From Bacteroidota bacterium (GTDB lineage Bacteria; Bacteroidota; Ignavibacteria; Ignavibacteriales; Ignavibacteriaceae), in the NCBI GenBank assembly GCA_022564295.1, contig JADFLR010000004.1, positions 11,840 through 75,839 on the forward strand: a DNA stretch of 64,000 nt, in the 5' to 3' direction. Positions 42,016 through 58,859 of this stretch are shown here, piece after piece (the stretch's first letter is position 1; each line of letters opens with the position of its first letter). A program made the position numbers and the translations under genes. The notes under the pieces were generated by a model that was given only the letters and a program-made list of their open reading frames with translations, was not told the DNA's origin and searched no databases.

Positions 42016-43473
42016 TTAAATCCCTTCGTACTTTTTAATCAATTTACTTCTTAAAATTTTCTCAAGTTCATTTCTCGGAAGTTCTTTCTCGACAATTAAT
42101 TTTTTAGGAATTTTGAATCCCGCCAGATCATCCTTAAGAAATTCCTGAAGGTCATTAAGCTCTATGGTGCTCTTTTCATCTTTTAGTACAATTGCAGCAG
42201 CAACAATCTCACCCCAATCATCATCCTTTAACGGAAAAACAGCAGCATCAACAATTTCAGGATGTTCAATTAATCTTTTCTCAACTTCGTTGGGGTTTAC
42301 ATTTTCACCACCCGTTACAATTAAATCGGTTCTTCTTGCTTCTATGAACAAATATCCATTGGCATCTACAAATCCTATATCACCCGTAAAATAAAAACCG
42401 TCTTCAATTTTCTTTTCCGTCTCATCCTCGTCATTATAATAACCCTTCATCACAGCAGCCGAAGAAACTGCAATCTCGCCAACTTCTCCCCACGGAATTT
42501 GAAACCTGTTTTCATTTACAATAATTATTTGATTCGGTTTAACTGCTGTACCCACTGATCTTGGTTTATCATAAATTTCCTCATCGGAAATTGAACTAAC
42601 GAAAGAAGAAGTTTCAGTCGAACCATAAACTTTTGTTATATTCCAGCCATCGCTAATCGCATCAAACACCAAACGTTGATCAATAAACCCTCCGCCTAAT
42701 AATGTAATTCTTAATTCATCATTCGGTAGTATGTCAGCTTCAAGCATTCTTTTCAATTGAGTCGGTACAAACGAACAAAGCGTCGGGTTAAAGTTTTTCA
42801 TCACTTCTGCAAGATCTTGAATTTGTAAAGATTCGGGAATAATGATTGAAGTACCAAAAAGTAGCGCCCTCGAGATTATTGAAAAACCTCCAATGTGGTA
42901 AAAAGGTAAACTTGCAAGCCATCTGTCTTCTTTGTTGTGATGAATAATTTTATCACCGATTCTTGCACTTTGCAATAAATTGTTGAATGATAATTCAACT
43001 CCTTTAGAATTGCCTGAAGCACCCGAAGTGAAAATAATTACGGCAGTATCTTCCGGATTTAATTCTTCACCAGGTTCAATATCATCCTGTTCCAGCTCTT
43101 CATCGAAAGGATAAGAAAATACTTTCGCATCAAATGATGGACCAATAGATTTTATCATTCTATTTTGCAAAACAACTTTGCAATCGGTTGTAATAATTTG
43201 TTCTTCAATTTCATTGTTAGTTAAACGTGGATTGATCAATACAGGCAGGGCTTTAATTTGCCATAATGCCAACAGGTTAATGATAAAATCAGCATCACTA
43301 TTTCCTATTATTGCAATGTTGTCTTTATCACTTAAACCCATAGCCGATAGGATACCGGCAGTTTTTAAAACTTTTTTTTGGAACTCTTCATAATTCAGTT
43401 GGTCTGAATTTGAATTGATTGCCGGATAACTCAATTCCTGAGTTTTTAAAAGGAAAGCATTTATTGAAAACAT
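42016..43473 (-). CDS. menE: o-succinylbenzoate-CoA ligase
   Basis: AMP-binding motifs FTSGASGNSKGV and YGSTE. It sits directly after menC in the men gene string. Confidence 0.85.
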   Translation of the reverse strand: MFSINAFLLKTQELSYPAINSNSDQLNYEEFQKKVLKTAGILSAMGLSDKDNIAIIGNSDADFIINLLALWQIKALPVLINPRLTNNEIEEQIITTDCKVVLQNRMIKSIGPSFDAKVFSYPFDEELEQDDIEPGEELNPEDTAVIIFTSGASGNSKGVELSFNNLLQSARIGDKIIHHNKEDRWLASLPFYHIGGFSIISRALLFGTSIIIPESLQIQDLAEVMKNFNPTLCSFVPTQLKRMLEADILPNDELRITLLGGGFIDQRLVFDAISDGWNITKVYGSTETSSFVSSISDEEIYDKPRSVGTAVKPNQIIIVNENRFQIPWGEVGEIAVSSAAVMKGYYNDEDETEKKIEDGFYFTGDIGFVDANGYLFIEARRTDLIVTGGENVNPNEVEKRLIEHPEIVDAAVFPLKDDDWGEIVAAAIVLKDEKSTIELNDLQEFLKDDLAGFKIPKKLIVEKELPRNELEKILRSKLIKKYEGI

Positions 43474-43477
43474 AATT

Positions 43478-44506
43478 TTAGCTTAAAATTATTTTACCTG
43501 ATTTAATTGGAAAAGGATCATTTGTTATCGTATTTAAAAAGAGATCTGCCACACCAAGTCCGTGAGCCACATTTTCTTCAACAGAAGCAGCGGCAATAAC
43601 AGCATTTGTTTTTCCTATGGCAGATTCAAAGGATGATGTAATTACCGGGGTAATATTTTCTGCCATTGCTAGTTTTATTATATCCAATGTTGGCAGCAGT
43701 CCCCCGATCATCATTGGTTTTAAAATTAAATAAGAAACCGCTCCACTTTTAATAAATTCCTTCGCTTCTTTTACTGAACGGATCGATTCATCCGGTGCGA
43801 GCGGGATGTTGGTTCTCTTTTTCAAGTCTATGTAATCGCTCAAATTAGTAACAGGTTGCTCGGCATATTCAATATCGAATTGTTCCAGTTCCATTAAGTT
43901 TATAATTGCTTCATCTAAATTCCAATTGCCGTTGGAATCTATTCGCAGCTTAATATTATCTCCAAAGGTTTTCCGTATTAATTTAATAACTGAAAAATCT
44001 TCTTCAAAATTACTTCTTCCTATTTTTAATTTTATTGTGGTAAATCCTTTTTCAATAAGGGTTCTTGCGGTTTTCACGGATTCATCAACATTCAAAAACC
44101 CGATTGCAGCATTTACAGTTACCCGCTTTTTTAATTTTAAGTTTAGAAGTTTATCAATTGTAGTTTTATTTTTATTGCAAATTATATTAATGATTGCCTG
44201 TTCCAATCCGTGTCTTAGAGCCGGCATTTTTTTATAATTTACGAGGCAGTTGTTTATACTTTTTTCAATCTCGGTTTCATCAATTATTACCTTAAGTTTA
44301 AAATCTGACAACACATTTTCAACATCTTCAATACTTTCCGAACCAAACTCAGGGAAAGGGCAGCAGTCTCCTATTCCTTCAAAACCATCCGGATCGTCTA
44401 ATCTTAAAATAAATCCTCTTCTCTCTTTAATTTCAGTTCGTGCTGTGAAGAACGACTTCTTCAGTTTTAATGTGTATGGTGAGTATGTTAATTGCAGGTC
44501 TTTCAT
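43478..44506 (-). CDS. menC: o-succinylbenzoate synthase (enolase superfamily)
   Basis: 342 aa with KLKIG, RIDSNGNW, EYAEQP and APDES metal/acid-base motifs in enolase-superfamily order. The men context supports the call. Confidence 0.8.
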   Translation of the reverse strand: MKDLQLTYSPYTLKLKKSFFTARTEIKERRGFILRLDDPDGFEGIGDCCPFPEFGSESIEDVENVLSDFKLKVIIDETEIEKSINNCLVNYKKMPALRHGLEQAIINIICNKNKTTIDKLLNLKLKKRVTVNAAIGFLNVDESVKTARTLIEKGFTTIKLKIGRSNFEEDFSVIKLIRKTFGDNIKLRIDSNGNWNLDEAIINLMELEQFDIEYAEQPVTNLSDYIDLKKRTNIPLAPDESIRSVKEAKEFIKSGAVSYLILKPMMIGGLLPTLDIIKLAMAENITPVITSSFESAIGKTNAVIAAASVEENVAHGLGVADLFLNTITNDPFPIKSGKIILS

Positions 44507-44519
44507 TTGTTTATAACTC

Positions 44520-44619
44520 TATTATCTGCCGTGGCAGCGTATGAATGCATGACTGCATGCCTGCCCGGCTTTTGACGGAGTTGCATGTAATTATTATGGC
44601 AGCTGCCGTATAGATAATA
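44520..44619. repeat. GC-rich inverted-repeat element in the menA-menC spacer
   Basis: TATTATCT (44520-27) pairs with AGATAATA (44612-19), and GGCAGC (44533-38) pairs with GCTGCC (44602-07). They enclose about 63 nt rich in GCATGC-type palindromes. Confidence 0.5.
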
Positions 44620-44684
44620 ATTGACAATCTTTATCAATCATTTTTCATTCAGCATTCAATCATCCAACCATTCAACCATACGTT

Positions 44685-45584
44685 TTATAATATCAAACCA
44701 AGAGAAAAGAGTAAACCGAACAGTGCCGCATACTTAGCTGATAATTCCAATGTTTTGTTCAGCCGCTCTCCTTCAAAGGATCGAAGCGTTTTAATAAGAA
44801 TAACAGCAATTGGTAACGACAATAGCGGTAAAAATATCCAGTAAGTATAATCATATTTAAAATAGATAATAAATAAAATTAAGTAAGAAATGGCAATTGA
44901 ATTAACAAACTGAAAACGTGTAAACTTTTTCCCCAGCTTAACTGCCAATGTATACTTATCGGCTTCTCTATCTTCTTCGATGTCACGGTAATTATTAACA
45001 ACTAAAATGTTCGTGGTTAAAGCACCGACAGGAACAGCGATTAAAAATGAGAGTAAGCTAAATTCGTGTAAATGAAGATAATATGTTCCCGTTGTTCCTA
45101 CAATTCCAAAAAAAGCAAAGACAAAAACATCTCCCAAACCATTATAAGCTAAAGGGTATGGTCCGGCTGTATATGCGAGTCCTGCCAGGATGGAAATTAC
45201 ACCTATGATTAATATTACAACTCCTGCAGAATAAACAAGATACAATCCCAATAAAAAAGCTAAGCCAAAAACAGTAACTATACCCATTTTCATTTCGGAT
45301 GTAGAAATTAATCCGGATACAAGAACTCTTCGTGGACCAATTCTGTCCTTCTTGTCTGTGCCTTTTAAATAATCATAAAGGTCGTTGGTAAAGTTGGTTC
45401 CCACCTGAATAAGAATTGAGCATAACAAAGCGATTAGAGAAAGGATAAGAGTGAATTTATTGTGTGAAACAGCCAACGCAGAGCCAACCATTACAGGAAC
45501 CACTGCGGCTAACAGAGTTCTTGGTCTGCTTGCAAGTAACCAGCTTTCAATCTTTGAAGGTTTTTCAACCGCGGAAGAATTCAT
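44685..45584 (-). CDS. menA: 1,4-dihydroxy-2-naphthoate polyprenyltransferase
   Basis: UbiA-family motifs NDLYDYLKGTD and NNYRDIEEDR. The protein is a polytopic membrane protein of 299 aa. Confidence 0.9.
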   Translation of the reverse strand: MNSSAVEKPSKIESWLLASRPRTLLAAVVPVMVGSALAVSHNKFTLILSLIALLCSILIQVGTNFTNDLYDYLKGTDKKDRIGPRRVLVSGLISTSEMKMGIVTVFGLAFLLGLYLVYSAGVVILIIGVISILAGLAYTAGPYPLAYNGLGDVFVFAFFGIVGTTGTYYLHLHEFSLLSFLIAVPVGALTTNILVVNNYRDIEEDREADKYTLAVKLGKKFTRFQFVNSIAISYLILFIIYFKYDYTYWIFLPLLSLPIAVILIKTLRSFEGERLNKTLELSAKYAALFGLLFSLGLIL

Positions 45585-45590
45585 TTTTGA

Positions 45591-46436
45591 TTACGGCAGT
45601 TTCGGGAATTTTTTAAAATCGGGTTTTCTTTTTTCAAGATACGCTTTTTTGCCTTCCTGTGCTTCCTCACTCATATAATAAAGAAGAGTTGCATTTCCTG
45701 CAAGTTCCTGAATACCTGCTTGTCCATCGAGTTCTGCGTTGAAGGCAGATTTTAAAACTCTTATTGCCATCGGGCTGTGCTGAAGAATTTGATTTGCCCA
45801 CTCAATTCCTTCCTGTTCAAGTTTATCAACGGGAACAACTATATTTACGAGTCCCATTGCTTCTGCCTCATTGGCATTGTACTCTTTGCAAAGATACCAG
45901 ATCTCTCGTGCCTTTTTCTGTCCGACAATTCTTGCAAGGTAGCTTGAACCGAAGCCGGCATCAAAACTTCCAACCTTAGGTCCGGTCTGTCCGAAGACAG
46001 CATTATCTGCAGCGATAGTTAAATCGCAAACAACTTGTAAAACATTACCGCCACCGATTGCATAACCGGCTACCAAAGCTATAACAACTTTAGGTATGCT
46101 TCTGATAAGTTTTTGAAGATCGAGAACGTTAAGACGCGGAACACCATCTTTACCAACATATCCTTTATCACCTCTTATTCTCTGATCGCCACCGGAACAA
46201 AAAGCATATTTCCCATCCTTCGCCGGACCATAACCAGTCAGCAAAATAACACCGATATCTTGATCTTCCCTTGCATCCGAAAAAGCATTATACATCTCTA
46301 TTATTGTTTCGGGACGAAAAGCATTTCTCACTTCCGGTCGGTTAATTGTTACCTTCGCAATACCATCCATCTTCTCGTAGATGATATCCTGATATCCGCC
46401 TGAGGCGGATTTTACTTTTTGCCAGTTAAAATTCAT
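45591..46436 (-). CDS. menB: 1,4-dihydroxy-2-naphthoyl-CoA synthase
   Basis: 281 aa of the crotonase fold. It has [19 protein letters not shown] and [10 protein letters not shown], and the characteristic C-terminal [14 protein letters not shown]. Confidence 0.95.
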
Positions 46437-49600: not shown

Positions 49601-50232
49601 ACACTTCGAAAATTATAACTATAGGTGAAATTACAATATCAACACAAGGGTTAGCAGGTAGTAATTTCGAGTCTGAATCTAAAGTTAAAACTTGGCATTT
49701 CCCATTTTTAAGTAAAGGTAATGTCTATAATTATTCCTTTCAGGTTGAAGAAATTTTTTATACGAGCTTAGAAGATAAGCCTTCTTTAAAAGTATTTTAC
49801 GAATCTAAACCTAAGTTGTTAATCAGACGTATTGTAAATAGGCAAGACAGATTATCTGTTGGCTATACTGAAGCTAGAATGGTTTTCAAAAAAGATATTA
49901 ATCCATTTATTCCTGTGAATGATGATTTCCATCCGAAATATTTACTTGCTTTAATGGCAAGCAAATTTATTTCCTTTATATATCTGAATATATCATCAAT
50001 TGCGACAAAAGATGATTTTAGACAGACAACATTAGCTGAATTACGAGAGATACCTATCCCGATTATTCCACTTAAAGAGCAAAAGTCTTTTATTCAAAAA
50101 GCAGATAAAATACTAGAGATGAAGGTTAAGGACCTGGGTGTTAATACAAGTAAAATAGAAAAAGAAATCGATGAAATGGTTTATAAGCTTTATGGATTGA
50201 CGGAGGAGGAAATTAAAATTTTTGAGGATTAA
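46612..50232 (+). CDS. single-polypeptide type IIG restriction-modification enzyme (Eco57I-like: PD-ExK nuclease + N6-adenine methyltransferase + TaqI-like TRD)
   Basis: 1206 aa. The N-terminal TDLAIH...VIIEAKS is a PD-(D/E)XK motif. SAM motif I is ICDPAVGSGHFLV. FEWRFEFPEV is followed by motif IV, VIGNPPYIP. The C-terminal roughly 350 aa is specificity-domain-like. Confidence 0.8.
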   Translation: MIKLNNLTLKKSINKAYLKVKPVREDFEKFKEELKKLLTLINDKESEEHNKNFVRDFLINTFYSDKYVNTSGRTDLAIHLDRTSKSLIGVIIEAKSPANKYDMIFEDNLNCKAMHEVILYYLRERIDKRNDEIKNIIITNSYKWIIFNADQFEKQFYKSKLKNEYLKWRDDKKVSKLNEHFYNEIVKKFLDESNADIEAISFDLRDLEKNLNKKDEKHLIPLFKKLSPPELLKEPFANDSNTLNKQFYSELLHIIGLEEYKEGSKKKIGRKDENKRNSGSLLENTIRMLNAKNVIKNFDDISVYGSTEEEQLYNIALELNIVWINRIMFLKLLEAQLVNYHSGDKNYKFLEPKVISQYDDLFELFHEVLAVKTADRNPDLIGKFNKIPYLNSSLFELSEIEKKTIDISSLKDKFNLPFYKSTVFSKDIKSKSELPALEYLLLFLDAYDFASEGGEEILEERKTIMNASVLGLIFEKINGYKEGSFYTPGFITMYMARETLRRAVVQKFNETKSTTHKDYEELKKNINTSSSGREEANKIINELKICDPAVGSGHFLVSCLNEIIAIKADLKVLNYRDGRQVQNFSFEIENDELVINNEETDELFGYHLNPSDKPIPTLHELQEALFHEKETVIENCLFGVDINPNSVNICRLRLWIELLKNSYYTSESNYTELETLPNIDINIKQGNSLISRFDVRQDIFTHADKQTLDVYKMNVTLYKNVQDRDKRRELKNSIDKTKERFRGIAVDPLYKVREQREKLTEQLHKLNVDNPLFKHEDSAKKEAEVEKKRSNLSAKISKLSKEIEDKAEEYRTIYSNSFEWRFEFPEVLDDDGNFAGFDIVIGNPPYIPLEGFSEVYREFFKKKYSQFKRKFETSVLFIVEGFGILKPQGILTYIAPVTWQTGENYQIFRKYLFEQKGIIKIINLPFNIFADAYVDTAIYIFSNDLTDSYSIFSFNKKAKVDTLEGINFIEIEKTLLSLPKHKIILNPFIYEILNRLDTSKIITIGEITISTQGLAGSNFESESKVKTWHFPFLSKGNVYNYSFQVEEIFYTSLEDKPSLKVFYESKPKLLIRRIVNRQDRLSVGYTEARMVFKKDINPFIPVNDDFHPKYLLALMASKFISFIYLNISSIATKDDFRQTTLAELREIPIPIIPLKEQKSFIQKADKILEMKVKDLGVNTSKIEKEIDEMVYKLYGLTEEEIKIFED

Positions 50233-50322
50233 ATAAATTGATTAATGAAAAAGAAATGACAGGAAATGTTACTATTGTTTATAATTTATCGCCTGAACTT
50301 AAAAGAAGGCTAATGTAGAAAA

Positions 50323-52590
50323 TTGAAAAGCTTAAACCTTAATAAAATATTAAATCCAATTCTGAATTTTTTGCTGACCTTACTGAGATTGATACTGTTA
50401 TTTTTGAAAAAACTTTTCAATGTCCTTAATATTATAATTTCGACTCTTTTTAATGTATTAATTTCATTAGTAATTATTTCTTTCTCTTTATATCTTTATT
50501 CTAATGATTTACAAGATATACTAGCAAGTTCTTCACTTTTACCAACAATCCTGATTGCTATTGGTAGCACTTTGATTACCATATTAATTCTAGCGATATC
50601 AATTACAATTATCCCTATTCAACGCGCTATTGAATCTTTTTCAAAAAGCATTTCTTACTTATACAGAAATGATAAACTCAATATTTTAATTTTCATACTA
50701 ATTTCACTTTTCGCTTTGTTTGCTTTTATTTCATCAATTGATGGAATTTTCTTTTCCATTAAAGCGTCAATTTTATTTCCAATTAATTTAGCTACGGTAG
50801 GAATTACTTTAGACCTTTTACGTTGGCATCAAAGAAGAGTCAGTAAACTTTTAGAACCAGACGAAGCTATTAAGAAACTCAAAATAAAAGTAATTAATTT
50901 TATAAAAAGGAATCAATTCATAATATCACTTTTGGCAAGGCTAAGTGTATTGATTTCTTTTAAGAAAAGAGATAAAGAAAATTATTTGTATGATGAAGAA
51001 AGAAAATTATATCTAACAAGTTCTAGTCATTATAACCATATTAATAAAAAATTAGGTGAGCTGACAGAAATCTCAACCAAAGCACTAGCCAAAAATGAAA
51101 TTGAAACTGTTGAGATTGTAGTGAATGCTGTATCATCTATTATAATCACATATATAAACTGTCGTAAAAATAATTTAATTTTTTACACATCTAAAGATGC
51201 TTTTTTGGTTACTCAAAGCGATGCAGATGAGGTTTTTAATAAGGCTTATGAGGGTCTATTCAATATTGCATTAAGGTCTCACAAAGAATCGCACGAATAT
51301 CCGAGTATTTATTGTCTCAAGGCATTAGCCAAGATAGTAGAAAATATTTGTATTCTTCCTCGTTCTTCAAAAATAAATTTGCTGTTTTCTCCCATTTACT
51401 ATTTTAACAAAATATTGAATGATGCGCAGGAAAAAAATCTTGATGAAGTTGTATTTCAGGGATGTAATGTGATTGAGGAAATATCAAAAAACATATATTC
51501 TCAAAAACATATTATTGAAGGAGAGTATACATTTAATGAATTGTTTCAAAAACTGATAACGAATTATATTATTACTAACAAACTGGAACTTGGTAATAAA
51601 GTATTGGAGCAAATGATAAATCAAATTTTTCTATTGATTCCCAATTATCCATATTCAATAACCCACTCTCTAAAAAATGTTATAAAAACAATTGAAGAAA
51701 TATTCCCCGTAGCTTTGGCAACTAATAATATTTCAAAACATAATTTAATGTATTTGCACTTCTCAATTCCCTATGATATAACAAAAGAAAAATCATTCTT
51801 CCATTTGGTACAAAAGGCAACAATATTTAATAGAGTAGAAAAAGAATTGATAAATCCATATCAGACTTTTTTAGGTATAAATCATGAAATTTGTATGCAT
51901 TACCGAAAGTTGGCTGATAACAATGATTTAGGGGAAAGCGTATTTATGTGGCATATCAGTACTTCTATTAGTTATATAGTTAAAATCCATTTCCATTTAT
52001 TATCAAAACCAATTACAGAAATAAATAGTTATACTGATAAACTTATAAATCAAATATCTTGGTATTTGTCTTTTTTTTGGTGTTCCTTTTCTCATTCATC
52101 AAAAATAAAAATGTCTTATGCCGAAAAAGCTTTTGAAGTTGTAACTCAAATTGGTTTGACTTGCTATAACACAGAATTTGTAGACAAATATCCTATTTCA
52201 AGGAATGAAATAATAGAGTCTTGTATTAGTGATTTAATTTCAATGATAAATTCATTTACAAAAGTTGGAGAAGATAATAATCAATATAACCTTTCAGACC
52301 TAATATTGTATTTGTGGTATATTCGATTAGCAGCAAAAAATAACGTGGAAGATTTTAGAATTAAGAAGATTGATAAAAAAATCAAAGAATTAGATATACT
52401 CAAAACAGAAGCTATAGAAGATATTAAGGAAGCATTAGAATTACGTTATGAACAGATGATGGAAATGCTACTAGAAGAAGATTCAAGATTTTCTTTAGAT
52501 GATGAGAAAGCTATAGGTCTATTAAGAAAATTAAATAAGGATAAAAAGTTTTATGAAGAAAATTCAATTTTAAATATATTTATAGGGTGA
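50323..52590 (+). CDS. large hypothetical protein: N-terminal polytopic membrane region (about 5 TM) + roughly 570-aa helical cytoplasmic region
   Basis: 755-aa uninterrupted ORF. The only start-like codon after the upstream stop (50311-13) is TTG at 50323. TM stretches include VLISLVIISFSLYLY, LPTILIAIGSTLITILILAISITIIP, ILIFILISLFALFAFI and ILFPINLATVGITL. I recognise no motif. Confidence 0.6.
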   Translation: MKSLNLNKILNPILNFLLTLLRLILLFLKKLFNVLNIIISTLFNVLISLVIISFSLYLYSNDLQDILASSSLLPTILIAIGSTLITILILAISITIIPIQRAIESFSKSISYLYRNDKLNILIFILISLFALFAFISSIDGIFFSIKASILFPINLATVGITLDLLRWHQRRVSKLLEPDEAIKKLKIKVINFIKRNQFIISLLARLSVLISFKKRDKENYLYDEERKLYLTSSSHYNHINKKLGELTEISTKALAKNEIETVEIVVNAVSSIIITYINCRKNNLIFYTSKDAFLVTQSDADEVFNKAYEGLFNIALRSHKESHEYPSIYCLKALAKIVENICILPRSSKINLLFSPIYYFNKILNDAQEKNLDEVVFQGCNVIEEISKNIYSQKHIIEGEYTFNELFQKLITNYIITNKLELGNKVLEQMINQIFLLIPNYPYSITHSLKNVIKTIEEIFPVALATNNISKHNLMYLHFSIPYDITKEKSFFHLVQKATIFNRVEKELINPYQTFLGINHEICMHYRKLADNNDLGESVFMWHISTSISYIVKIHFHLLSKPITEINSYTDKLINQISWYLSFFWCSFSHSSKIKMSYAEKAFEVVTQIGLTCYNTEFVDKYPISRNEIIESCISDLISMINSFTKVGEDNNQYNLSDLILYLWYIRLAAKNNVEDFRIKKIDKKIKELDILKTEAIEDIKEALELRYEQMMEMLLEEDSRFSLDDEKAIGLLRKLNKDKKFYEENSILNIFIG

Positions 52591-52697
52591 AAGTAAAAGA
52601 GAATTAATTGAAGTAGCGAAAGTTGTCTGAAGAGATTTACAAAAGAATTTTTCAAAAGCCGAAAAGAATTTCTATTACAATAAGCAAAGAAGTAAAT

Positions 52698-52806
52698 TAG
52701 TTTGTAAGTTTGCTTGGGGAACTCATCCCCCGGCCCCTTCTCCCCGCAAGCGGGATCCTCGATTTATAAAGAGAAGGGGAGTTTAGGAGTCCCTCTCTTT
52801 TTAAGA
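52698..52806. repeat. direct-repeat copy 1 (GTTTGTAAGTTTGC...GGGAACTCATCCCCCGGCCCCTTCTC...AGAGAAGGGGAG...TCCCTCTCTT)
   Basis: Collinear with 54150..54258. This copy carries an extra CCCGCAAGCGGGATCCTCGATTTA insertion. Confidence 0.75.
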
Positions 52807-53050
52807 CCTGCCTGCCATTAAGCAGGGTTAGCATTAGTGAATGGCTTTATGAATTATCCCGCGTTTTATTGTGTTATTTGAGGCAATTATTTAAGTTTGG
52901 GAAAAATGAAAGTGAGGTATTTATAAAACTACTTGCTATACGATTAGATGCCAGCCGGATTGATGGTAATTAATTACACTTTTACAATAAAAAAATAGAA
53001 AAAATGGTTATTAAGCTATTTAGATTGATGGAAGAGAAAATAAATATTTG

Positions 53051-53965
53051 ATGGATTCCTCATATATAAAAAGACTAGTTTTTATTAAGTATCTCCATAA
53101 AATTGGAGAAGAGCAAAGTAAATTGCCTGAACCCCTTTCAAGCATATCTATTTTAACCTTTCATAATGCAATTGAATTATTTCTACAATTAACTGTTGAG
53201 TATTTGAATTGTGGACAGTATTATATAGAGTTTATGGAATATTGGGATATTATTAGTAAAAAGCTTGGAAAAGAACTTGCATATAAAGATTCAATGAGAA
53301 GATTAAATAAAGCAAGGGTTGCATTTAAGCATCATGGGAATTTGCCATCAAATTTCAACATTGAAGAATTTCGAATAGCAACACAAAATTTTTTTATAGA
53401 GAGTTGTCAATTAATATTTACAATTGATTTTGAAGATGTTACTTTAATAGATCTCGTACCCTCGGAAGAAATTCAAGAATTGTTAAAAACAGCTAATAAT
53501 AAAATACATACTGATAAATATGAAGCATTGAAGAATATTTCCATTTCTTTTGCTAAAGTATTGACAGAGTATGAAGCTAAATTATATCCTAAATATGGAA
53601 ATATTAATAATGAATTTTCTAAGGATTATCATTCTTATCATTACTATTATAGTAGTATCGACGCAACACCTTTTCAGAAAATTGAAAATAAGTTAGATGC
53701 AATCACGGATTCAATTCTCATACTTAGTTTGGGTCTTAATTATAATAAATATCTTAAATTCAAAACTATTAGCTTTTATGTATTTAGAACCACTGGAGGT
53801 GGGTATCATGTAACCCCACAAAAAGAAATGGAAGATTCTATAGATGGTAGCATAAATGACAAATATTCAATTGATGATATAAAATTTTGCTTAGATTTTG
53901 TAATTGAAACAAGTATTGTCATTTATTCAATAGATTTTAATTTTTCTTCTACACATTTAGCATAA
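53051..53965 (+). CDS. hypothetical helical protein with HEPN-like Rx4H motif
   Basis: About 304 aa from the ATG at 53051. RRLNKARVAFKHHGNLPS contains R-x4-H (RVAFKH), preceded by helices such as TFHNAIELFLQLTVEYL. The HEPN assignment is pattern-level only. Confidence 0.55.
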   Translation: MDSSYIKRLVFIKYLHKIGEEQSKLPEPLSSISILTFHNAIELFLQLTVEYLNCGQYYIEFMEYWDIISKKLGKELAYKDSMRRLNKARVAFKHHGNLPSNFNIEEFRIATQNFFIESCQLIFTIDFEDVTLIDLVPSEEIQELLKTANNKIHTDKYEALKNISISFAKVLTEYEAKLYPKYGNINNEFSKDYHSYHYYYSSIDATPFQKIENKLDAITDSILILSLGLNYNKYLKFKTISFYVFRTTGGGYHVTPQKEMEDSIDGSINDKYSIDDIKFCLDFVIETSIVIYSIDFNFSSTHLA

Positions 53966-54149
53966 ATAGAAGTAGAGTAGAAATAAAATGTTTTGGAAAC
54001 AATAAAAAATAGAATCTATCCTTTTAATCAGAATCCCTTCAAAAACTGATTCATCGACTTAACAAACCTCCCCGTTTCTTCAAGGTGCGTATTGTGCCCC
54101 GTATATGGAATTATTTAATAAATTGCATAACAGCGTTATAATAAAGAAA

Positions 54150-54258
54150 TAGGTTTGTAAGTTTGCATAGGGAACTCATCCTCCGGCCCCTTCTCTTACA
54201 AAGAGAAGGGGAGTTTTAAAGTCCCTCTCTTCTTAAGAGAGGGACTCAGGGTGAGTTA
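54150..54258. repeat. direct-repeat copy 2 with two strong hairpins
   Basis: CCCCTTCTCT (54187-96) pairs with AGAGAAGGGG (54202-11). AGTCCCTCTCT (54220-30) pairs with AGAGAGGGACT (54236-46). The element is followed by CAGGGTGAGTT. Confidence 0.8.
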
Positions 54259-54292: not shown

Positions 54293-54679
54293 ATGAGTTT
54301 AAACCGTAAAAGAGAATTAGTTGCAGTAGCAAAAGTTGTTTGCAGGGATTTAAGAAAGAACGCCACAGAGACTGAAAAGATTTTCTGGGAGACAATTCGG
54401 AATAAGAAGCTTCTTGACAAAAAATTCTACCGGCAATATCCTTTATTTTATGATATCACGGGAAAGGAATCATTTTTTGTTGCTGATTTTTATTGTCACC
54501 AGGAAAAGTTGGTTGTTGAATTAGATGGTGTTATACATAAATATAGATTAAAAGAGGACAAAGAAAGAGAAAAAATTCTTAATTATATGGGATTGAATAT
54601 TATCCGCTTTCGGAATGATGAAGTATTGAACGATTTAGACGATGTACTATCAAAATTAAAAGAAATACTTAAACATTAA
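54293..54679 (+). CDS. DUF559 endonuclease-domain protein (Vsr/PD-ExK-like)
   Basis: 128 aa. It contains LRKNATETEKIFWETIRNKKL...FYRQYPL...VADFYCHQEKLVVELDG..H......D..R...L...G..IIRFRNDEV, the canonical DUF559 layout. Confidence 0.85.
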   Translation: MSLNRKRELVAVAKVVCRDLRKNATETEKIFWETIRNKKLLDKKFYRQYPLFYDITGKESFFVADFYCHQEKLVVELDGVIHKYRLKEDKEREKILNYMGLNIIRFRNDEVLNDLDDVLSKLKEILKH

Positions 54680-54741
54680 TCAGTTTATTAAAACGAAACA
54701 CAACTGTTCAAATTAAATTGATAATATTTTAACTTCTCATT

Positions 54742-54785
54742 CCCACTTCTCTTTGTAAGAGAAGGGGGTTAGGGGGTTGAGTTCA
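54742..54785. repeat. third hairpin copy downstream of DUF559
   Basis: CCCACTTCTCTTTGTAAGAGAAGGGGG is followed by TTAGGGGGTTGAGTT. This parallels the hairpin plus GGGTGAGTT arrangement upstream of the gene. Confidence 0.7.
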
Positions 54786-54872: not shown

Positions 54873-55694
54873 TCAGTAATTCTTTAGAAATTCATTAACA
54901 ACTTTCACAAATTTCATCGGTTCTTCGATATGAGTATTGTGTCCTGCATTTTTAATTATTTTATGCTTAGCATTTGGAAATTTTTTCTTTAACATAGAGT
55001 TTATTTTTGTAAACTTTGTATCAAGCTCACCTGTTATCAGTAGTACAGGGCAATTGATTTGATTAAGTTTGTTGCCAAAATAACCCATTCTCCCTGTTCC
55101 AAATTCTCGCAATGAATTTGCCAATCCGATTTTTGAATTAAGTGCTTTCTTTTTCCGTATTTTCTTCAACTTCTCGTTCGAAAATCTTCTTTGAGTATTA
55201 AAAATTTCTTTATTCATCCATAACTCAACGAATTCTTCAATATTGTGTGATTCGATGTAATCAGCTAATTCTTCATCAATTTTAATTCTTTCACTTCGGA
55301 TTTTTTCACTTTCAATTCCTGCAGTTGTGCCTTCTAATATTAATCCTCTAATTTTATTTGGATGATTGATAGCAAAACTCAACGCTGCTCTCCCACCCAT
55401 TGAATAACCGAAAATTATTGCTTGTTTGATGGAGAGATTGTTTAAAATATCATTAATCTGTTTTGAAAGTGCTTGCGGACTGTATTTATCAATATTAACC
55501 GGAGAATCACTTTTACCGTGTCCAACCAAATCAATTCCAATATAGTTAAAATTGGGATTAAGTAAACGGTGAATTTCCCGCCAATCATCCAACGAACCTG
55601 TAAATCCGTGGAGCATTAAAATTGTGTCTCTTTTTTGCTCGAAAGAATTGAAACACTCAAAATTAATATTCACTGAATCAGAGATGATCCTCAT
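54873..55694 (-). CDS. menH: 2-succinyl-6-hydroxy-2,4-cyclohexadiene-1-carboxylate synthase (alpha/beta hydrolase)
   Basis: 273 aa with HGFTGS, the nucleophile elbow GYSMGG and a C-terminal GHNTHIEEP. It overlaps the menD stop by 4 nt. Confidence 0.8.
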   Translation of the reverse strand: MRIISDSVNINFECFNSFEQKRDTILMLHGFTGSLDDWREIHRLLNPNFNYIGIDLVGHGKSDSPVNIDKYSPQALSKQINDILNNLSIKQAIIFGYSMGGRAALSFAINHPNKIRGLILEGTTAGIESEKIRSERIKIDEELADYIESHNIEEFVELWMNKEIFNTQRRFSNEKLKKIRKKKALNSKIGLANSLREFGTGRMGYFGNKLNQINCPVLLITGELDTKFTKINSMLKKKFPNAKHKIIKNAGHNTHIEEPMKFVKVVNEFLKNY

Positions 55695-57475
55695 TTAAAT
55701 GAAAAATCCCTCTCAATATTTTTAATAACTTCAGCCCAATACTTTTTACGCATTTGTTTGGAGGAAATTGAATCGGTTAAAATTTCGAGAACTGCAAATG
55801 ATTTTTTTTGAAGAGAATTGATGAGTTTAATTTTTAATTCTTTTTCGTTTTTTATTAGATGATGTTCAAGTCCGAATGACTTAACAATTGGAGCAATATT
55901 AAGATTATGTGGTGTTTTAAAATACGTTTTAAATTTATTGTTTGAAGAAACCGGAAGCATTTCGAAAATACCTCCCCCATTATTGTTTATTAAAATTACA
56001 ACAAGAGGAATAGAATATTTTTTTGCGGGAAGGAGAGCATTTAAATCATGTATAAAAGAAAGATCGCCTGTAATTAAAATTGTTGGTTTTTCTATTGATG
56101 TAATTCCTAAAGCAGTGGTAGTTACACCGTCTATTCCACTTGCACCGCGGTTAAAAAACAGTTTCAGGTTTTTATTGGTCTTCCCAACAAAGTTATCAAA
56201 ATCGTGAATTGGCAAGCTGTTGCCTACCATTATTTTCGTGTTAGAAGGTAAGATTGAAATTAATTCAGAGAAAACTTTTGGTTCAATCTCAAGATTTGAT
56301 TTTTTTAATAATAATGTTTTTATCTCTTTGGTTAATAACTCCACTTTTTTAAAGTTCTTTAACCAATTATGACTTCTTTTAAATTTGTTTTCTATTAAAA
56401 CCCGAATGAGATTTTCACAAAAACTTATAGGATTAAATTTTAACACTTTGGATGTTTTTGATGGATCGAATAAATCTCCGTAATCATTAATGATAAATCT
56501 AAGCGGTTTCGATTGTTCAAGATATTTCTCAAGAATTGCAGAAGTAAAAGTTCTTCCGAACTGTAATACAATTTCAGGTTTGTTTTCCGTTATAAAGTTA
56601 TTCGAACGTAAAAATGCATCGTAATTAGTGCAAATAAATTCATCTGATTTTAAGTTTCTAAATCTCAAATGTGATACACCATCTGCCAAAACCGGATAGC
56701 CCGTAACCTTTGAAAGCTGCTTTATATTAGAAATAAATTTTGGATCATATTCTTTAGGACCAACAATTATCAGTCCTTTCTCCTTTCCGATTATGTTTTC
56801 TGCAATTTTATTAATTCGTTTTGTTTCTCTTTTGGATAAATTTCCATTCCCGTTAATGTTTGCTACCGGAGTGATGCAATTCTTTATTACCATCAAAATT
56901 TCATCCCCAACTTCATCTGTGAATGAATCTGGTTCAAGCGGTTTACGGAAAGGGAAATTTAAATGAACAGGACCTTTATCTCTTATAATACTTGTTTCAA
57001 ATGCTCGTACAGCAATCTTCTGTAAATTGATTATTCGTTTAACAGAAAGCTGCGGTAATCCCAAATATTTAAACCATCGTATATGATTTCTATATAAATT
57101 CCATTGGTTAATTGTTTGATTGGCTCCAGTGTTTAATAATTCAGGCGGTCTATCAGCAGTGCAAATTATTAACGGAATCCTCTGTTGATATGATTCAATA
57201 ATTGCAGGATAAAGTTCTGCCGTCGCAGTTCCAGAGGTTGTTACAATTGCAACAGGAAGACCGCTTGCCTTTGCCAATCCTATGGCGAAAAAGCCGGACA
57301 CTCTTTCATCGATATGCACAAAACATTTAATCTTTTTTTGTTCTGCAAAAGCAAGTGTAAGCGGAGTGCTTCTTGAACCGGGTGAAATGCAGGCAAAACG
57401 AACTCCTAATGTACAAAGTTGGTTTACAAATGCTTTCGCCCAAATAAAATTTTTATTAACCTTTGTTTTGTTCAT
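55691..57475 (-). CDS. menD: SEPHCHC synthase (ThDP-dependent)
   Basis: 594 aa with an N-terminal CISPGSRSTPL and the ThDP motif GDLSFIHDLN...NNGGGIF. Confidence 0.9.
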   Translation of the reverse strand: MNKTKVNKNFIWAKAFVNQLCTLGVRFACISPGSRSTPLTLAFAEQKKIKCFVHIDERVSGFFAIGLAKASGLPVAIVTTSGTATAELYPAIIESYQQRIPLIICTADRPPELLNTGANQTINQWNLYRNHIRWFKYLGLPQLSVKRIINLQKIAVRAFETSIIRDKGPVHLNFPFRKPLEPDSFTDEVGDEILMVIKNCITPVANINGNGNLSKRETKRINKIAENIIGKEKGLIIVGPKEYDPKFISNIKQLSKVTGYPVLADGVSHLRFRNLKSDEFICTNYDAFLRSNNFITENKPEIVLQFGRTFTSAILEKYLEQSKPLRFIINDYGDLFDPSKTSKVLKFNPISFCENLIRVLIENKFKRSHNWLKNFKKVELLTKEIKTLLLKKSNLEIEPKVFSELISILPSNTKIMVGNSLPIHDFDNFVGKTNKNLKLFFNRGASGIDGVTTTALGITSIEKPTILITGDLSFIHDLNALLPAKKYSIPLVVILINNNGGGIFEMLPVSSNNKFKTYFKTPHNLNIAPIVKSFGLEHHLIKNEKELKIKLINSLQKKSFAVLEILTDSISSKQMRKKYWAEVIKNIERDFSFK

Positions 57476-58859
57476 GGAATAAATTTAGGATTGTGTTGAA
57501 TTTCATTTCAGTTTCAACGTACTCTTCTTCGGGTATAGATTCTTCGACTATCCCGGCTCCGGCATAAAGATGAAGTTCACCCTTTTTGTAAAGCGCAGAT
57601 CGGATAGCAACAGCAAACTCGCAATTAAAATTAATATCTATCCAACCAATCAATCCTGAAAATAATCCTCTGTCAAATTTTTCTATTTCATTTATTGTAT
57701 CACGAGCAATTTGTTTCGGTAATCCACAAACAGCTGGAGTTGGAAACATAGAATCGATTAAACTTAAAACATTTCTATCTTCATTTAGTTTAGCGTTTAT
57801 TTTAGTATAAAGATGTTGAACATTTTTTAGCTTTTTTATCTGAGGGGATGTATCAACTCTTATATCATGAGCATACTCAGATATTGCTTCGCCTATAAAA
57901 TCTATTACATACTTATGTTCTTTAATATTTTTTTTATTGAGTAATTCTGATTCAATATCAGTACTGTCTCCTGATGCTGAACCTGCAAGTGCATCAATTT
58001 CGATATTGTTATCACGTACACTTAAAAACTTTTCAGGCGATGCACCAAAAAAAGCAGCTTCATTCGATTTGACCATGAACAGGTAACAGTTGGAAAATGT
58101 TGTTTCTAATTTGCGAAACATTTGAGACCAATCTATACCATCTTTAACTAATAATTCTATTCTGCGCGATAAGACTATCTTCTTTAAATCGCGGTCGAAT
58201 TTTTTCTTTGCTTTTGTAACTATTGTATTCCATAGTGCTTCGTTATTATTAATTTCGCCGTTGCTATCGTAAATAATATTTTTCTTAACTGTCCCTTCAT
58301 TATCTAAATTAAAAATGGCTGAAACAGATTGGGTAAAGTTAACTGCAATATTTTCATTGTTGATTTTTGAATTCGCCTGAAAATTATATATAAGAAAAGT
58401 TTCATCTTCTTTTTGAAGGATGATAATTTGCGGAACAAAGAAATGGATCGTTCTAAAATTATTCCATTCTTCGGAAGACTTTTCAGAATCAAATTTTATT
58501 CCACCCGAAATAATGGGAATATTATTAATATTATAATCCGACCAATTGCTGACTAATTGTGATTTTAATTTTGAAATATCATGTTCAAGTGAAAGGATAT
58601 CCTTTTTATTTGATGATAATTCAATCAGGCAATTAAGAGCTACGAATGAATAGCCCTCATCAAATTTTTCGAAGAAGAGAAATTCATCATAATTATCGTT
58701 TATTAAATTTAGTTTTGCAATGAGATTGATTTTATTAACAGGTAATACGAAACTCACCACCGAGCCATCTAATATATTTTGTTCATTCTTGCTTATGAAA
58801 GAATATAAATCATTAGCTGCCTGTGATGCATCGGTAAATTTTGTTTTGGCTGTATTCAA
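57456..58859 (-). CDS. menF: isochorismate synthase
   Basis: 467 aa with a chorismate-binding C-terminal region: PTPAVCG, RGLFSGLIGW, AVAIRSAL and YAGAGIVEESIPEEEYVETE. Confidence 0.9.
   Translation of the reverse strand: MNTAKTKFTDASQAANDLYSFISKNEQNILDGSVVSFVLPVNKINLIAKLNLINDNYDEFLFFEKFDEGYSFVALNCLIELSSNKKDILSLEHDISKLKSQLVSNWSDYNINNIPIISGGIKFDSEKSSEEWNNFRTIHFFVPQIIILQKEDETFLIYNFQANSKINNENIAVNFTQSVSAIFNLDNEGTVKKNIIYDSNGEINNNEALWNTIVTKAKKKFDRDLKKIVLSRRIELLVKDGIDWSQMFRKLETTFSNCYLFMVKSNEAAFFGASPEKFLSVRDNNIEIDALAGSASGDSTDIESELLNKKNIKEHKYVIDFIGEAISEYAHDIRVDTSPQIKKLKNVQHLYTKINAKLNEDRNVLSLIDSMFPTPAVCGLPKQIARDTINEIEKFDRGLFSGLIGWIDINFNCEFAVAIRSALYKKGELHLYAGAGIVEESIPEEEYVETEMKFNTILNLFHEQNKG

Follow-up and report, generated by a model that had tools for sequence, protein, structure and literature searches.

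Do a gene for a large membrane protein and a gene for a HEPN-like protein, lying one after the other beside a restriction-modification (RM) gene, form a single defence system, or are they separate genes that have come to lie together? The question is raised by a stretch of 64,000 nucleotides (nt) from a member of the Ignavibacteriaceae (Bacteroidota; GenBank assembly GCA_022564295.1, contig JADFLR010000004.1, positions 11,840 to 75,839 of the forward strand), referred to here as the window. A first-pass annotation made from the letters of the DNA had noted two long uninterrupted open reading frames (ORFs) behind the RM gene, and the ORF listing of the window indeed shows the RM gene, an ORF of 755 amino acids (aa) and an ORF of 305 aa in that order, all on the plus strand (positions in Table 1). 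The same annotation had placed both genes in a defence context, which the type IIG RM neighbour bears out, and had proposed that the membrane protein and the HEPN protein act as one abortive-infection module. This last proposal did not hold: homologues of the two proteins were found together in no other family locus searched, and the two-gene system is largely refuted by this co-occurrence test. We consider it moderately likely that the locus is a composite islet in which a type IIG RM enzyme and a DUF559 endonuclease-like gene are combined with two single-gene modules independent of each other, the functions of the two modules being presumed ones.

The co-occurrence test drew on 55 loci from genomes for the 305 family and 6 from metagenomes for the 755 family, on the contigs that carry individual homologues, and on plasmid and viral loci. 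Hidden Markov models of both families were run against every locus translated in six frames, flanks of up to 10 kb being included wherever the contig was long enough. The two families were found together in the window only, out of 64 loci that hold a 305-family gene and 17 that hold a 755-family gene. No 755-family gene was present beside the 305-family gene in the 63 other loci, nor was a 305-family gene present in the 16 other 755-family loci, and this was true of the closest relatives as well. The 755 homologues of 72% and 67% identity have unrelated genes, or a DUF559 gene alone, downstream and no 305 gene, and the 305 homologues of 58-60% identity, likewise with no 755 gene beside them, directly precede genes for a Res helicase and an N6_N4 methylase or have a type ISP enzyme encoded nearby. 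In loci L070 and L071, which carry the 67%-identical 755 homologue, the block of RM, 755 and DUF559 genes is syntenic with the window; a TIR gene stands between the RM and 755 genes, and the 305 gene is missing. The RM enzyme of the window shares 46% identity over 959 aa with that of L070, which is encoded two genes upstream of the 755 homologue. Co-occurrence of homologues as neighbours was the check that the first-pass annotation had set beforehand; since the other loci yielded no such pair, the two-gene reading falls on the annotation's own terms.

The DNA between the two ORFs also argues against a single unit. Operon-like spacing is absent: the ORFs are 457 nt apart, and the gap, whose content the first-pass annotation had missed, is degraded DNA in which a DUF559 pseudogene fragment and a hairpin-rich repeat element lie. 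This element is GC-rich and built of two hairpins with the core CCCCTTCTCTTACAAAGAGAAGGGG; the core has 2 matches in the window compared to 0 in shuffled sequences, and the element was found nowhere else in the window. Its direct copies stand upstream and downstream of the 305 gene and thus bracket it, which suggests that the 305 cassette was gained by recombination at the repeats. Our conclusion is that, in this lineage, a separate cassette holding the 305 gene came to lie beside the 755 gene.

Neither family has a name in the libraries searched, in agreement with the first-pass annotation, which could match neither protein to a known family. No match to the 755-aa protein or to the 305-aa protein was obtained in Pfam or NCBIfam, PADLOC-DB v2 returned zero families for either at E values up to 1, and cluster look-ups gave no informative names; only the membrane part of the 755 family could be related to a Pfam family, DUF2254. 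For the 755-aa ORF there is no ATG among the first 45 codons, an in-frame stop immediately precedes the TTG at 50323, and the alignment with homologues reaches back to about this codon, so that the TTG start proposed earlier is plausible. The start chosen by NCBI lies later and gives a product of 728 aa (MCH7962991.1); this record and that of the 305-aa protein belong to a Bacteroidota metagenome-assembled genome. A word-indexed search with the 755-aa protein recovered 14 homologues, and the same 14 were returned when a 44-sequence alignment served as the query. An exhaustive profile search yielded 610 cluster representatives at E values up to 1e-3, a lower bound with clusters defined at 50% identity, and 193 of them at E values up to 1e-30. 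Most members have 700-790 aa and match over their full length, so that this is a large family of fixed architecture. No 755-family gene turned up in a scan of viral contigs, and plasmid searches with three family queries found one Ensifer plasmid only, on which the gene is unannotated.

The topology given by the first-pass annotation, about five N-terminal transmembrane helices followed by a helical region of roughly 570 aa, was borne out by hydropathy and by an AlphaFold model, which place 4-5 hydrophobic helices before about residue 177 and an all-helical region after it. In the membrane module, the first one or two helices are poorly conserved and the last three are conserved, with conserved polar positions at P98, Q100, D117, D164 and R167 and, at the cytoplasmic end, a conserved loop (PIQRxxExFSxSIxxxYRxD) and a DLLRW motif. 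By the positive-inside rule, positively charged residues behind the last helix and within the loop 98-118 point to a cytoplasmic C-terminal region. Matches to Pfam DUF2254 (PF10011) at E values up to 1 were obtained with 30 of 44 diverse family members, and three of the ten members tested scored above the gathering score of 28.8 bits (P0070 and P0074, 38.4 bits each; P0090, 30.8 bits), over profile positions 9-217 of 368 only. Since the match is confined to these positions, the relation is one of the membrane half, at the level of the family. The AlphaFold model, built with 44 sequences, is entirely helical (predicted local distance difference test, pLDDT, 88.6; predicted template modelling score, pTM, 0.79). 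When the full model was compared with the PDB by Foldseek, only generic helical-repeat proteins were matched (designed repeats, karyopherins, STAG2, LGN and NOT1; best E value 1.6e-4, template modelling (TM) score at most 0.39), and R281 is the sole residue invariant across the 44 diverse members.

A gene that stays on the strand of its neighbours while these defence neighbours are ever different is the usual basis for predicting new defence genes, and the 755 family behaves in this way. In Rosettibacter firmus (L005:1-16134, JAYKGJ010000001), a SNF2/PLD helicase, an Eco57I-type methylase and KwaA-KwaB (Kiwa) precede the homologue, and the island continues with an M78 peptidase and DUF4411, then SIR2 and a 950-aa protein. 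Elsewhere, DUF2326, RhuM and type III Mod and Res genes precede the homologue and Fic follows it; a type IIG RM and a TIR gene precede it, and DUF559 and HicAB follow; PglX, PglZ and BrxL of a BREX system precede it (gap after BrxL, 53 nt), and a PDDEXK gene and an integrase follow; MC6 and DUF2326 precede it, and an SDH protease and an SNase follow; or it stands at the end of a row of type IIG RM, DUF3800, M78 with DUF4411, and MC6 with DUF2326 genes. Defence genes were found within 10 kb of the 755-family gene in the window, L005, L009, L011, L083, L085 and L086, a small sample given as raw counts. In most contexts the relatives are a lone gene on the neighbours' strand, with the defence neighbours changing from locus to locus. 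A DUF559 gene is also present 3' of the 755 homologue in L011, L070 and L071.

Some branches of the 755 family do have an operonic partner, as judged from three loci, and the partners differ. In two distant members (L073:9884-12214 and L074:5247-7577) the downstream gene overlaps or is spaced by 4 nt, and its products of 231 and 299 aa (L073:12204-12899 and L074:7581-8480) carry KLRH[AS]IVHNQS, an R-x4-H motif, with a weak match to Pfam HEPN_Apea (E value 0.0098); these loci may represent a genuine pair of transmembrane and HEPN proteins in another branch of the family. This partner was rejected as a relative of the 305 family (hhalign probability 0.2%). On Ensifer adhaerens plasmid pB (NZ_CP098809), a full-length family member (L082:7383-9785; 558 bits) is preceded, 48 nt upstream, by a gene for a DUF5677 protein (L082:6445-7335; E value 2.7e-22), which is unrelated both to the 305 family and to the L073/L074 partner. 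A gene for a CHAT-domain protein lies downstream of the Ensifer member on the opposite strand. The Ensifer member itself gave a sub-threshold hit to DUF4145, of the HEPN clan, at aa 359-403 (VREFGNMAAH); a DUF4145 domain was set aside as a feature of the 755 family, since this one hit was not seen again among 44 members and the protein of the window lacks the motif.

Turning to the 305-aa ORF, its second codon is an ATG (53051) and its homologues start at MD.SYIKRL, so that the product is most likely 304 aa long. A word-indexed search recovered 44 homologues, and the family is sparse, horizontally mobile and ranges over many bacterial phyla and archaea (Bathyarchaeia, methanogens and Promethearchaeota), with further members on Streptomyces and Parabacteroides plasmids and on a few viral or prophage contigs; the GenBank phage set gave no match to the family. 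The protein is soluble, its top 19-residue hydropathy average being 1.3, under the 1.6 cut-off for hydrophobic segments. The first-pass annotation had seen in it the Rx4-6H signature of HEPN ribonucleases (RNases), within RRLNKARVAFKHHG encoded at 53297-53338. Only 13 columns are invariant among 40 homologues of 28-60% identity, and they include E42, N86, A88, R89, K93 and H94. As the family motif, LNKARVxxKH, holds five of these 13 columns (N86, A88, R89, K93 and H94), the R-x4-H is not a chance match; it is kept in 59 of 60 distinct relatives from the fetched loci, down to about 20-28% identity. In the AlphaFold model (pLDDT 87.1, pTM 0.81) the protein consists of two all-helical lobes, as the all-helical character noted earlier had led one to expect. 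The N-terminal lobe, aa 1-125, reaches pLDDT values above 90 and is modelled as a HEPN-like four-helix domain with helix 1 at 3-23, helix 2 at 29-51 (holding E42), an insert with a short helix at 52-78, helix 3 at 79-95, a loop, and helix 4 at 101-123.

In the published structural definition of a HEPN domain (PMC3710099), helix 2 bears an acidic residue, an insert separates this helix from helix 3, and the R-x4-6-H motif stands where helix 3 ends; the model shows all three features. The acidic residue is typically part of E-x3-[KR], and a polar N, D or H after the motif arginine is typical, not obligatory (PMC3710099). When the domain-sized Foldseek hits with probability above 0.3 from two libraries are considered, nearly all are HEPN proteins, the exception being one unnamed phage protein; they comprise the HEPN-MNT toxins 7ae6/7ae8, 5yep and 6m6u, and also 1wwp, 1ylm, Las1 and a phage HEPN protein, with TM scores relative to the target of 0.43-0.59. 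Several results weigh against the assignment. The HEPN matches of the model in the PDB and BFVD are not significant (E values 1.3-4, probability at most 0.77), a profile search of the PDB with the family gave chance hits only, and none of the 40 family members matched a Pfam HEPN-clan model at E values up to 1. In addition, E42 of the protein in the window stands in E-x3-Q and not in E-x3-[KR], and valine occupies the position behind the motif arginine in at least 90% of aligned members, with N, I, A or S in single sequences only. Overall, the earlier reading of the motif stood in its conservation and in its HEPN-defining position, and gained no support from profiles or from significant structural matches; the N-terminal domain is probably a very divergent HEPN domain.

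The genomic contexts of the 305 family are mixed. RM-type neighbours are present in the window and in L001, L002, L014, L035, L039 and L076. In L002 and L014 a gap of 1-7 nt separates the homologues from a downstream Res helicase and N6_N4 methylase, and a type ISP enzyme is encoded nearby in L001. Locus L014 (8001-16477) holds a same-strand row of the 305 homologue (60% identity), the Res helicase, the N6_N4 methylase, a Piwi protein and a DpnII/MboI-like protein. The Piwi-domain protein, a prokaryotic Argonaute, has 663 aa, and a gene for an XRE-type helix-turn-helix protein is found 16 nt upstream of the 305 homologue. On a Parabacteroides distasonis plasmid (NZ_OY725763; L076:306-12339) the homologue follows 4 nt after a gene for a 1134-aa N6 methylase, within a same-strand order of SNF2-related protein, N6 methylase, 305 homologue, TIR protein, hypothetical protein and AAA protein, which looks like a DISARM-like or composite defence cluster of a gut bacterium. 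Neighbour clustering over 60 distinct anchors revealed no conserved partner, and the tightly spaced neighbours vary in size and kind among loci.

The arrangement of the window itself is given in Table 1. The plus-strand block at 46.6-54.7 kb is flanked on both sides by minus-strand men genes and so interrupts a menaquinone operon; it looks like a small composite defence islet inserted there. The GC content at 50-54 kb, 27-28%, is the minimum of the window, most of which is at roughly 30-38%. The RM enzyme matches the Pfam domains DUF7149, DUF7814, Eco57I and TaqI_C, and its gene is separated from the 755 gene by 90 nt. A scan for sigma-70 promoters and terminators gave match totals not above those of shuffled sequences and is uninformative for this phylum. 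A 19-nt inverted repeat of 89% complementarity (50229-50247, after the RM stop, and 54674-54692, after the DUF559 stop) encloses the block of 755, 305 and DUF559 genes; in DNA this rich in AT it may have arisen by chance. At the far left of the window, positions 1-2000 have a GC fraction of 0.47 as compared with about 0.33 in the remainder; a scan of the window with Rfam found zero RNA families, and this high-GC stretch is therefore not a ribosomal or other known RNA gene.

Table 1. Features of the islet and of its flanks in the window
Feature	Position	Strand	Basis or remark
755-aa ORF	50323-52590	+	TTG start; MCH7962991.1, hypothetical protein
Membrane module of 755-aa protein, aa 1-177	50323-50853	+	Hydropathy, AlphaFold helices, conserved columns
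Predicted cytoplasmic alpha-solenoid of 755-aa protein, aa 178-755	50854-52590	+	AlphaFold, all helical
305-aa ORF	53048-53965	+	TTG start; likely product 304 aa from ATG 53051; MCH7962992.1, hypothetical
Codon of E42, invariant acidic residue in helix 2	53174-53176	+	Alignment and model
R89-V-A-F-K-H94 (R-x4-H), end of helix 3	53315-53332	+	Invariant in 40/40 aligned homologues
Type IIG RM enzyme, 1206 aa	46612-50232	+	PADLOC REase_MTase_IIG, E 6.7e-224
Best sigma-70-like promoter match, between RM stop and 755 start	50256-50285	+	ATGACA-18-TATAAT, 11/12 positions; weak evidence
Pseudogene fragment of the 5' part of the DUF559 gene	52593-52673	+	78% identity over 81 nt to 54306-54386; interrupted by stop codons
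GC-rich palindrome-containing repeat, copy 1, upstream of 305 gene	52687-52806	+	86-88% identical to 54140-54238
GC-rich repeat, copy 2, downstream of 305 gene and upstream of DUF559	54140-54238	+	Holds perfect palindrome CCCCTTCTCTTACAAAGAGAAGGGG
Intact DUF559 (Vsr/endonuclease-like) gene, 128 aa	54293-54679	+	Pfam DUF559, E 4.9e-29
Partial third copy of palindrome core	54743-54767		96% complementary to 54187-54211
menE-, menC-, menA- and menB-like genes, left of islet	42016-46436	-	UbiA, MR_MLE_C/OSBS_N and AMP-binding matches for neighbours of menB
menB-like gene (naphthoate synthase family), left islet flank	45591-46436	-	Pfam ECH_1, E 1.3e-75
menH-like hydrolase gene, right islet flank	54873-55694	-	Pfam Abhydrolase_1, E 2.3e-33
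menH-, menD- and menF-like genes, right of islet	54873-58859	-	TPP_enzyme_N/C and Chorismate_bind matches beside menH

In the composite islet that we favour, the 755-aa protein would be an autonomous membrane-anchored defence protein with a DUF2254-type polytopic anchor and an alpha-solenoid; the solenoid may offer a recognition or scaffold surface, and the conserved membrane module may provide the output, either by permeabilising the membrane or by blocking entry. In HEPN enzymes the conserved residues imply a metal-independent RNase that acts as a dimer. The 305-aa protein, if its HEPN assignment is correct, would be such a dimeric, metal-independent RNase, acting through E42, R89 and H94, with the C-terminal helical lobe holding it inactive until triggered, and we have moderate confidence that it serves as a stand-alone or RM-backing abortive-infection toxin. 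We put forward only tentatively the wider proposal that the 755 family is a single-protein membrane-anchored anti-phage system, in which the solenoid senses and the DUF2254-type module executes, and that, separately, the 305 family is a new bacterial and archaeal clade of HEPN RNases backing RM. To the points already raised over the HEPN assignment, the following must be added on the opposing side. No significant match in Pfam, NCBIfam, PADLOC or by structure ties either protein to a function, no catalytic or effector domain was recognised in the 755-aa protein (Pfam, PADLOC, and Foldseek against the PDB), and the 755-aa sequence of the window itself gave no match to DUF2254 at E values up to 1. 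The roughly ten distinct 755 contexts come mostly from Ignavibacteria-like genomes, one phylum-level group, and shared ancestry therefore inflates the association with defence genes. A neighbour census of the 305 family, covering 149 neighbours at 58 loci, is made up mostly of unrelated and housekeeping families; the defence-type neighbours in it are N6_N4_Mtase (3), AAA_21 (3), AAA_15 (2), OLD TOPRIM (2), ResIII (2) and PADLOC mad3 (4), so that a defence role of this family rests on few loci.

That census is also what lends some weight to the reading that one or both genes have no defence role at all and either travel as cargo of mobile DNA or encode membrane or regulatory proteins, specific to a lineage, that build up in variable regions, the R-x4-H serving in binding or in other chemistry. 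Within two genes on either side of 305 homologues lie NrdD, ThiC, XseA, malic enzyme, Lon and Ddl, with no dominant defence family; the want of a PADLOC match for either protein and of a catalytic domain in the 755-aa protein fits this as well, and HEPN-fold domains devoid of nuclease activity are known (PMC3710099). We nevertheless regard it as unlikely, given that 755-family genes lie inside recognised defence clusters in most of the distinct contexts read, and that the 305 family keeps the exact catalytic-type residues across bacteria and archaea and abuts RM genes in several unrelated lineages. Somewhat less probable still is a role of the 755-aa protein as an accessory subunit, a membrane tether or regulator, of N6-adenine methyltransferase systems such as type IIG RM, BREX and type III RM. 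Its gene does lie directly 3', on the same strand, of the type IIG RM gene of the window, of BrxL or of type III Mod-Res, and in the window, in L070/L071 and in Rosettibacter a homologous type IIG or Eco57I-type gene is found 1-3 genes upstream of it; the partner system varies, however, unrelated cassettes (TIR; KwaA-KwaB) come between the 755 gene and the methylase gene, and in other loci the 755 gene follows ABC-three-component genes or has no nearby methylase gene. Moreover, RM systems are the commonest defence genes, so such adjacency is expected for any gene of an islet. As for a single two-gene abortive-infection system, with the 755-aa protein as membrane sensor or effector and the 305-aa protein as HEPN RNase, the genes are adjacent on one strand in the window, the same pair occurs in a second assembly of the same lineage (both cluster members being on contigs of 91,708 nt), and L073/L074 show that the 755 family can be operonic with a protein bearing R-x4-H. 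Set against the missing co-occurrence, the degraded gap, the bracketing repeats and the unrelatedness of the L073/L074 partner to the 305 family, these observations leave the two-gene system very improbable. Single-genome adjacency had suggested a pair that the comparative data do not support, and cloning both genes as a unit would therefore test the wrong hypothesis. The locus is typical defence-island dark matter, in which the large and well-defined 755 membrane family deserves an experimental test on its own.

How the two families relate to known systems can be judged for the 305 family against the stand-alone and RM-linked HEPN RNase toxins PrrC/RloC, Abi2 (AbiD/AbiF), AbiJ, AbiU2, AbiV, Tha (of Staphylococcus aureus prophages) and mycobacteriophage Butters gp57r. 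Butters gp57r is a stand-alone defence protein whose HEPN assignment consists of a weak HHpred match and the motif. The 305-aa protein resembles these toxins in being one soluble protein, about 300 aa long, that has an additional helical lobe, and its family is found beside RM genes, on plasmids and in prophages. Unlike them, the 305 family (40 members) matches no profile of a named HEPN family, has sub-significant structural likeness and a valine after the arginine, and has no ABC ATPase, nucleotidyltransferase or antitoxin partner; the LNKARVxxKH context of the motif and, in the C-terminal lobe, LSLGLDYRKY..F and FCxDFVIE are its own. At least 16 HEPN clades are linked to RM, and three groups of HEPN domains fused to transmembrane segments have been described, in fusions with one or two transmembrane helices (PMC3710099). 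With such HEPN-plus-transmembrane modules the window shares the adjacency of a membrane protein and a HEPN-like protein in a defence context, and L073/L074 have another HEPN-like partner; the pair of the window is not conserved, however, and the 755-aa protein is far larger, carries a 570-aa solenoid and stands alone in most loci. It seems best to regard the 305 family as a new clade of HEPN-type toxins; the family, if it is an active HEPN RNase, would extend the layering of RM and HEPN defence to a clade missed by profiles in bacteria and archaea.

For the 755 family, the nearest relation is DUF2254, which Pfam describes as predicted membrane proteins of unknown function; a full-text literature search on DUF2254 returned nothing that, by title and abstract, concerned defence. 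The membrane module aligns to profile positions 9-217 of 368 of DUF2254, whereas the C-terminal half of the profile is unmatched and replaced by the alpha-solenoid of about 570 aa. KwaA of Kiwa is an example of a small membrane-protein defence module found in defence islands. The 755-aa protein resembles modules of this type as a polytopic membrane protein among RM, BREX, Kiwa, TIR and ABC-three-component genes, but no sequence relation to them was detected (no PADLOC match at an E value of 1), and its large cytoplasmic solenoid has no counterpart there. Should it prove to be a defence protein, it would add a large uncharted family, with no recognisable enzyme, to the single-gene immune systems and would offer a first clue to what the DUF2254 membrane module does. 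In comparison with these known systems, the 755 family is a new architecture, a DUF2254-type anchor joined to a long solenoid, in a known genomic niche.

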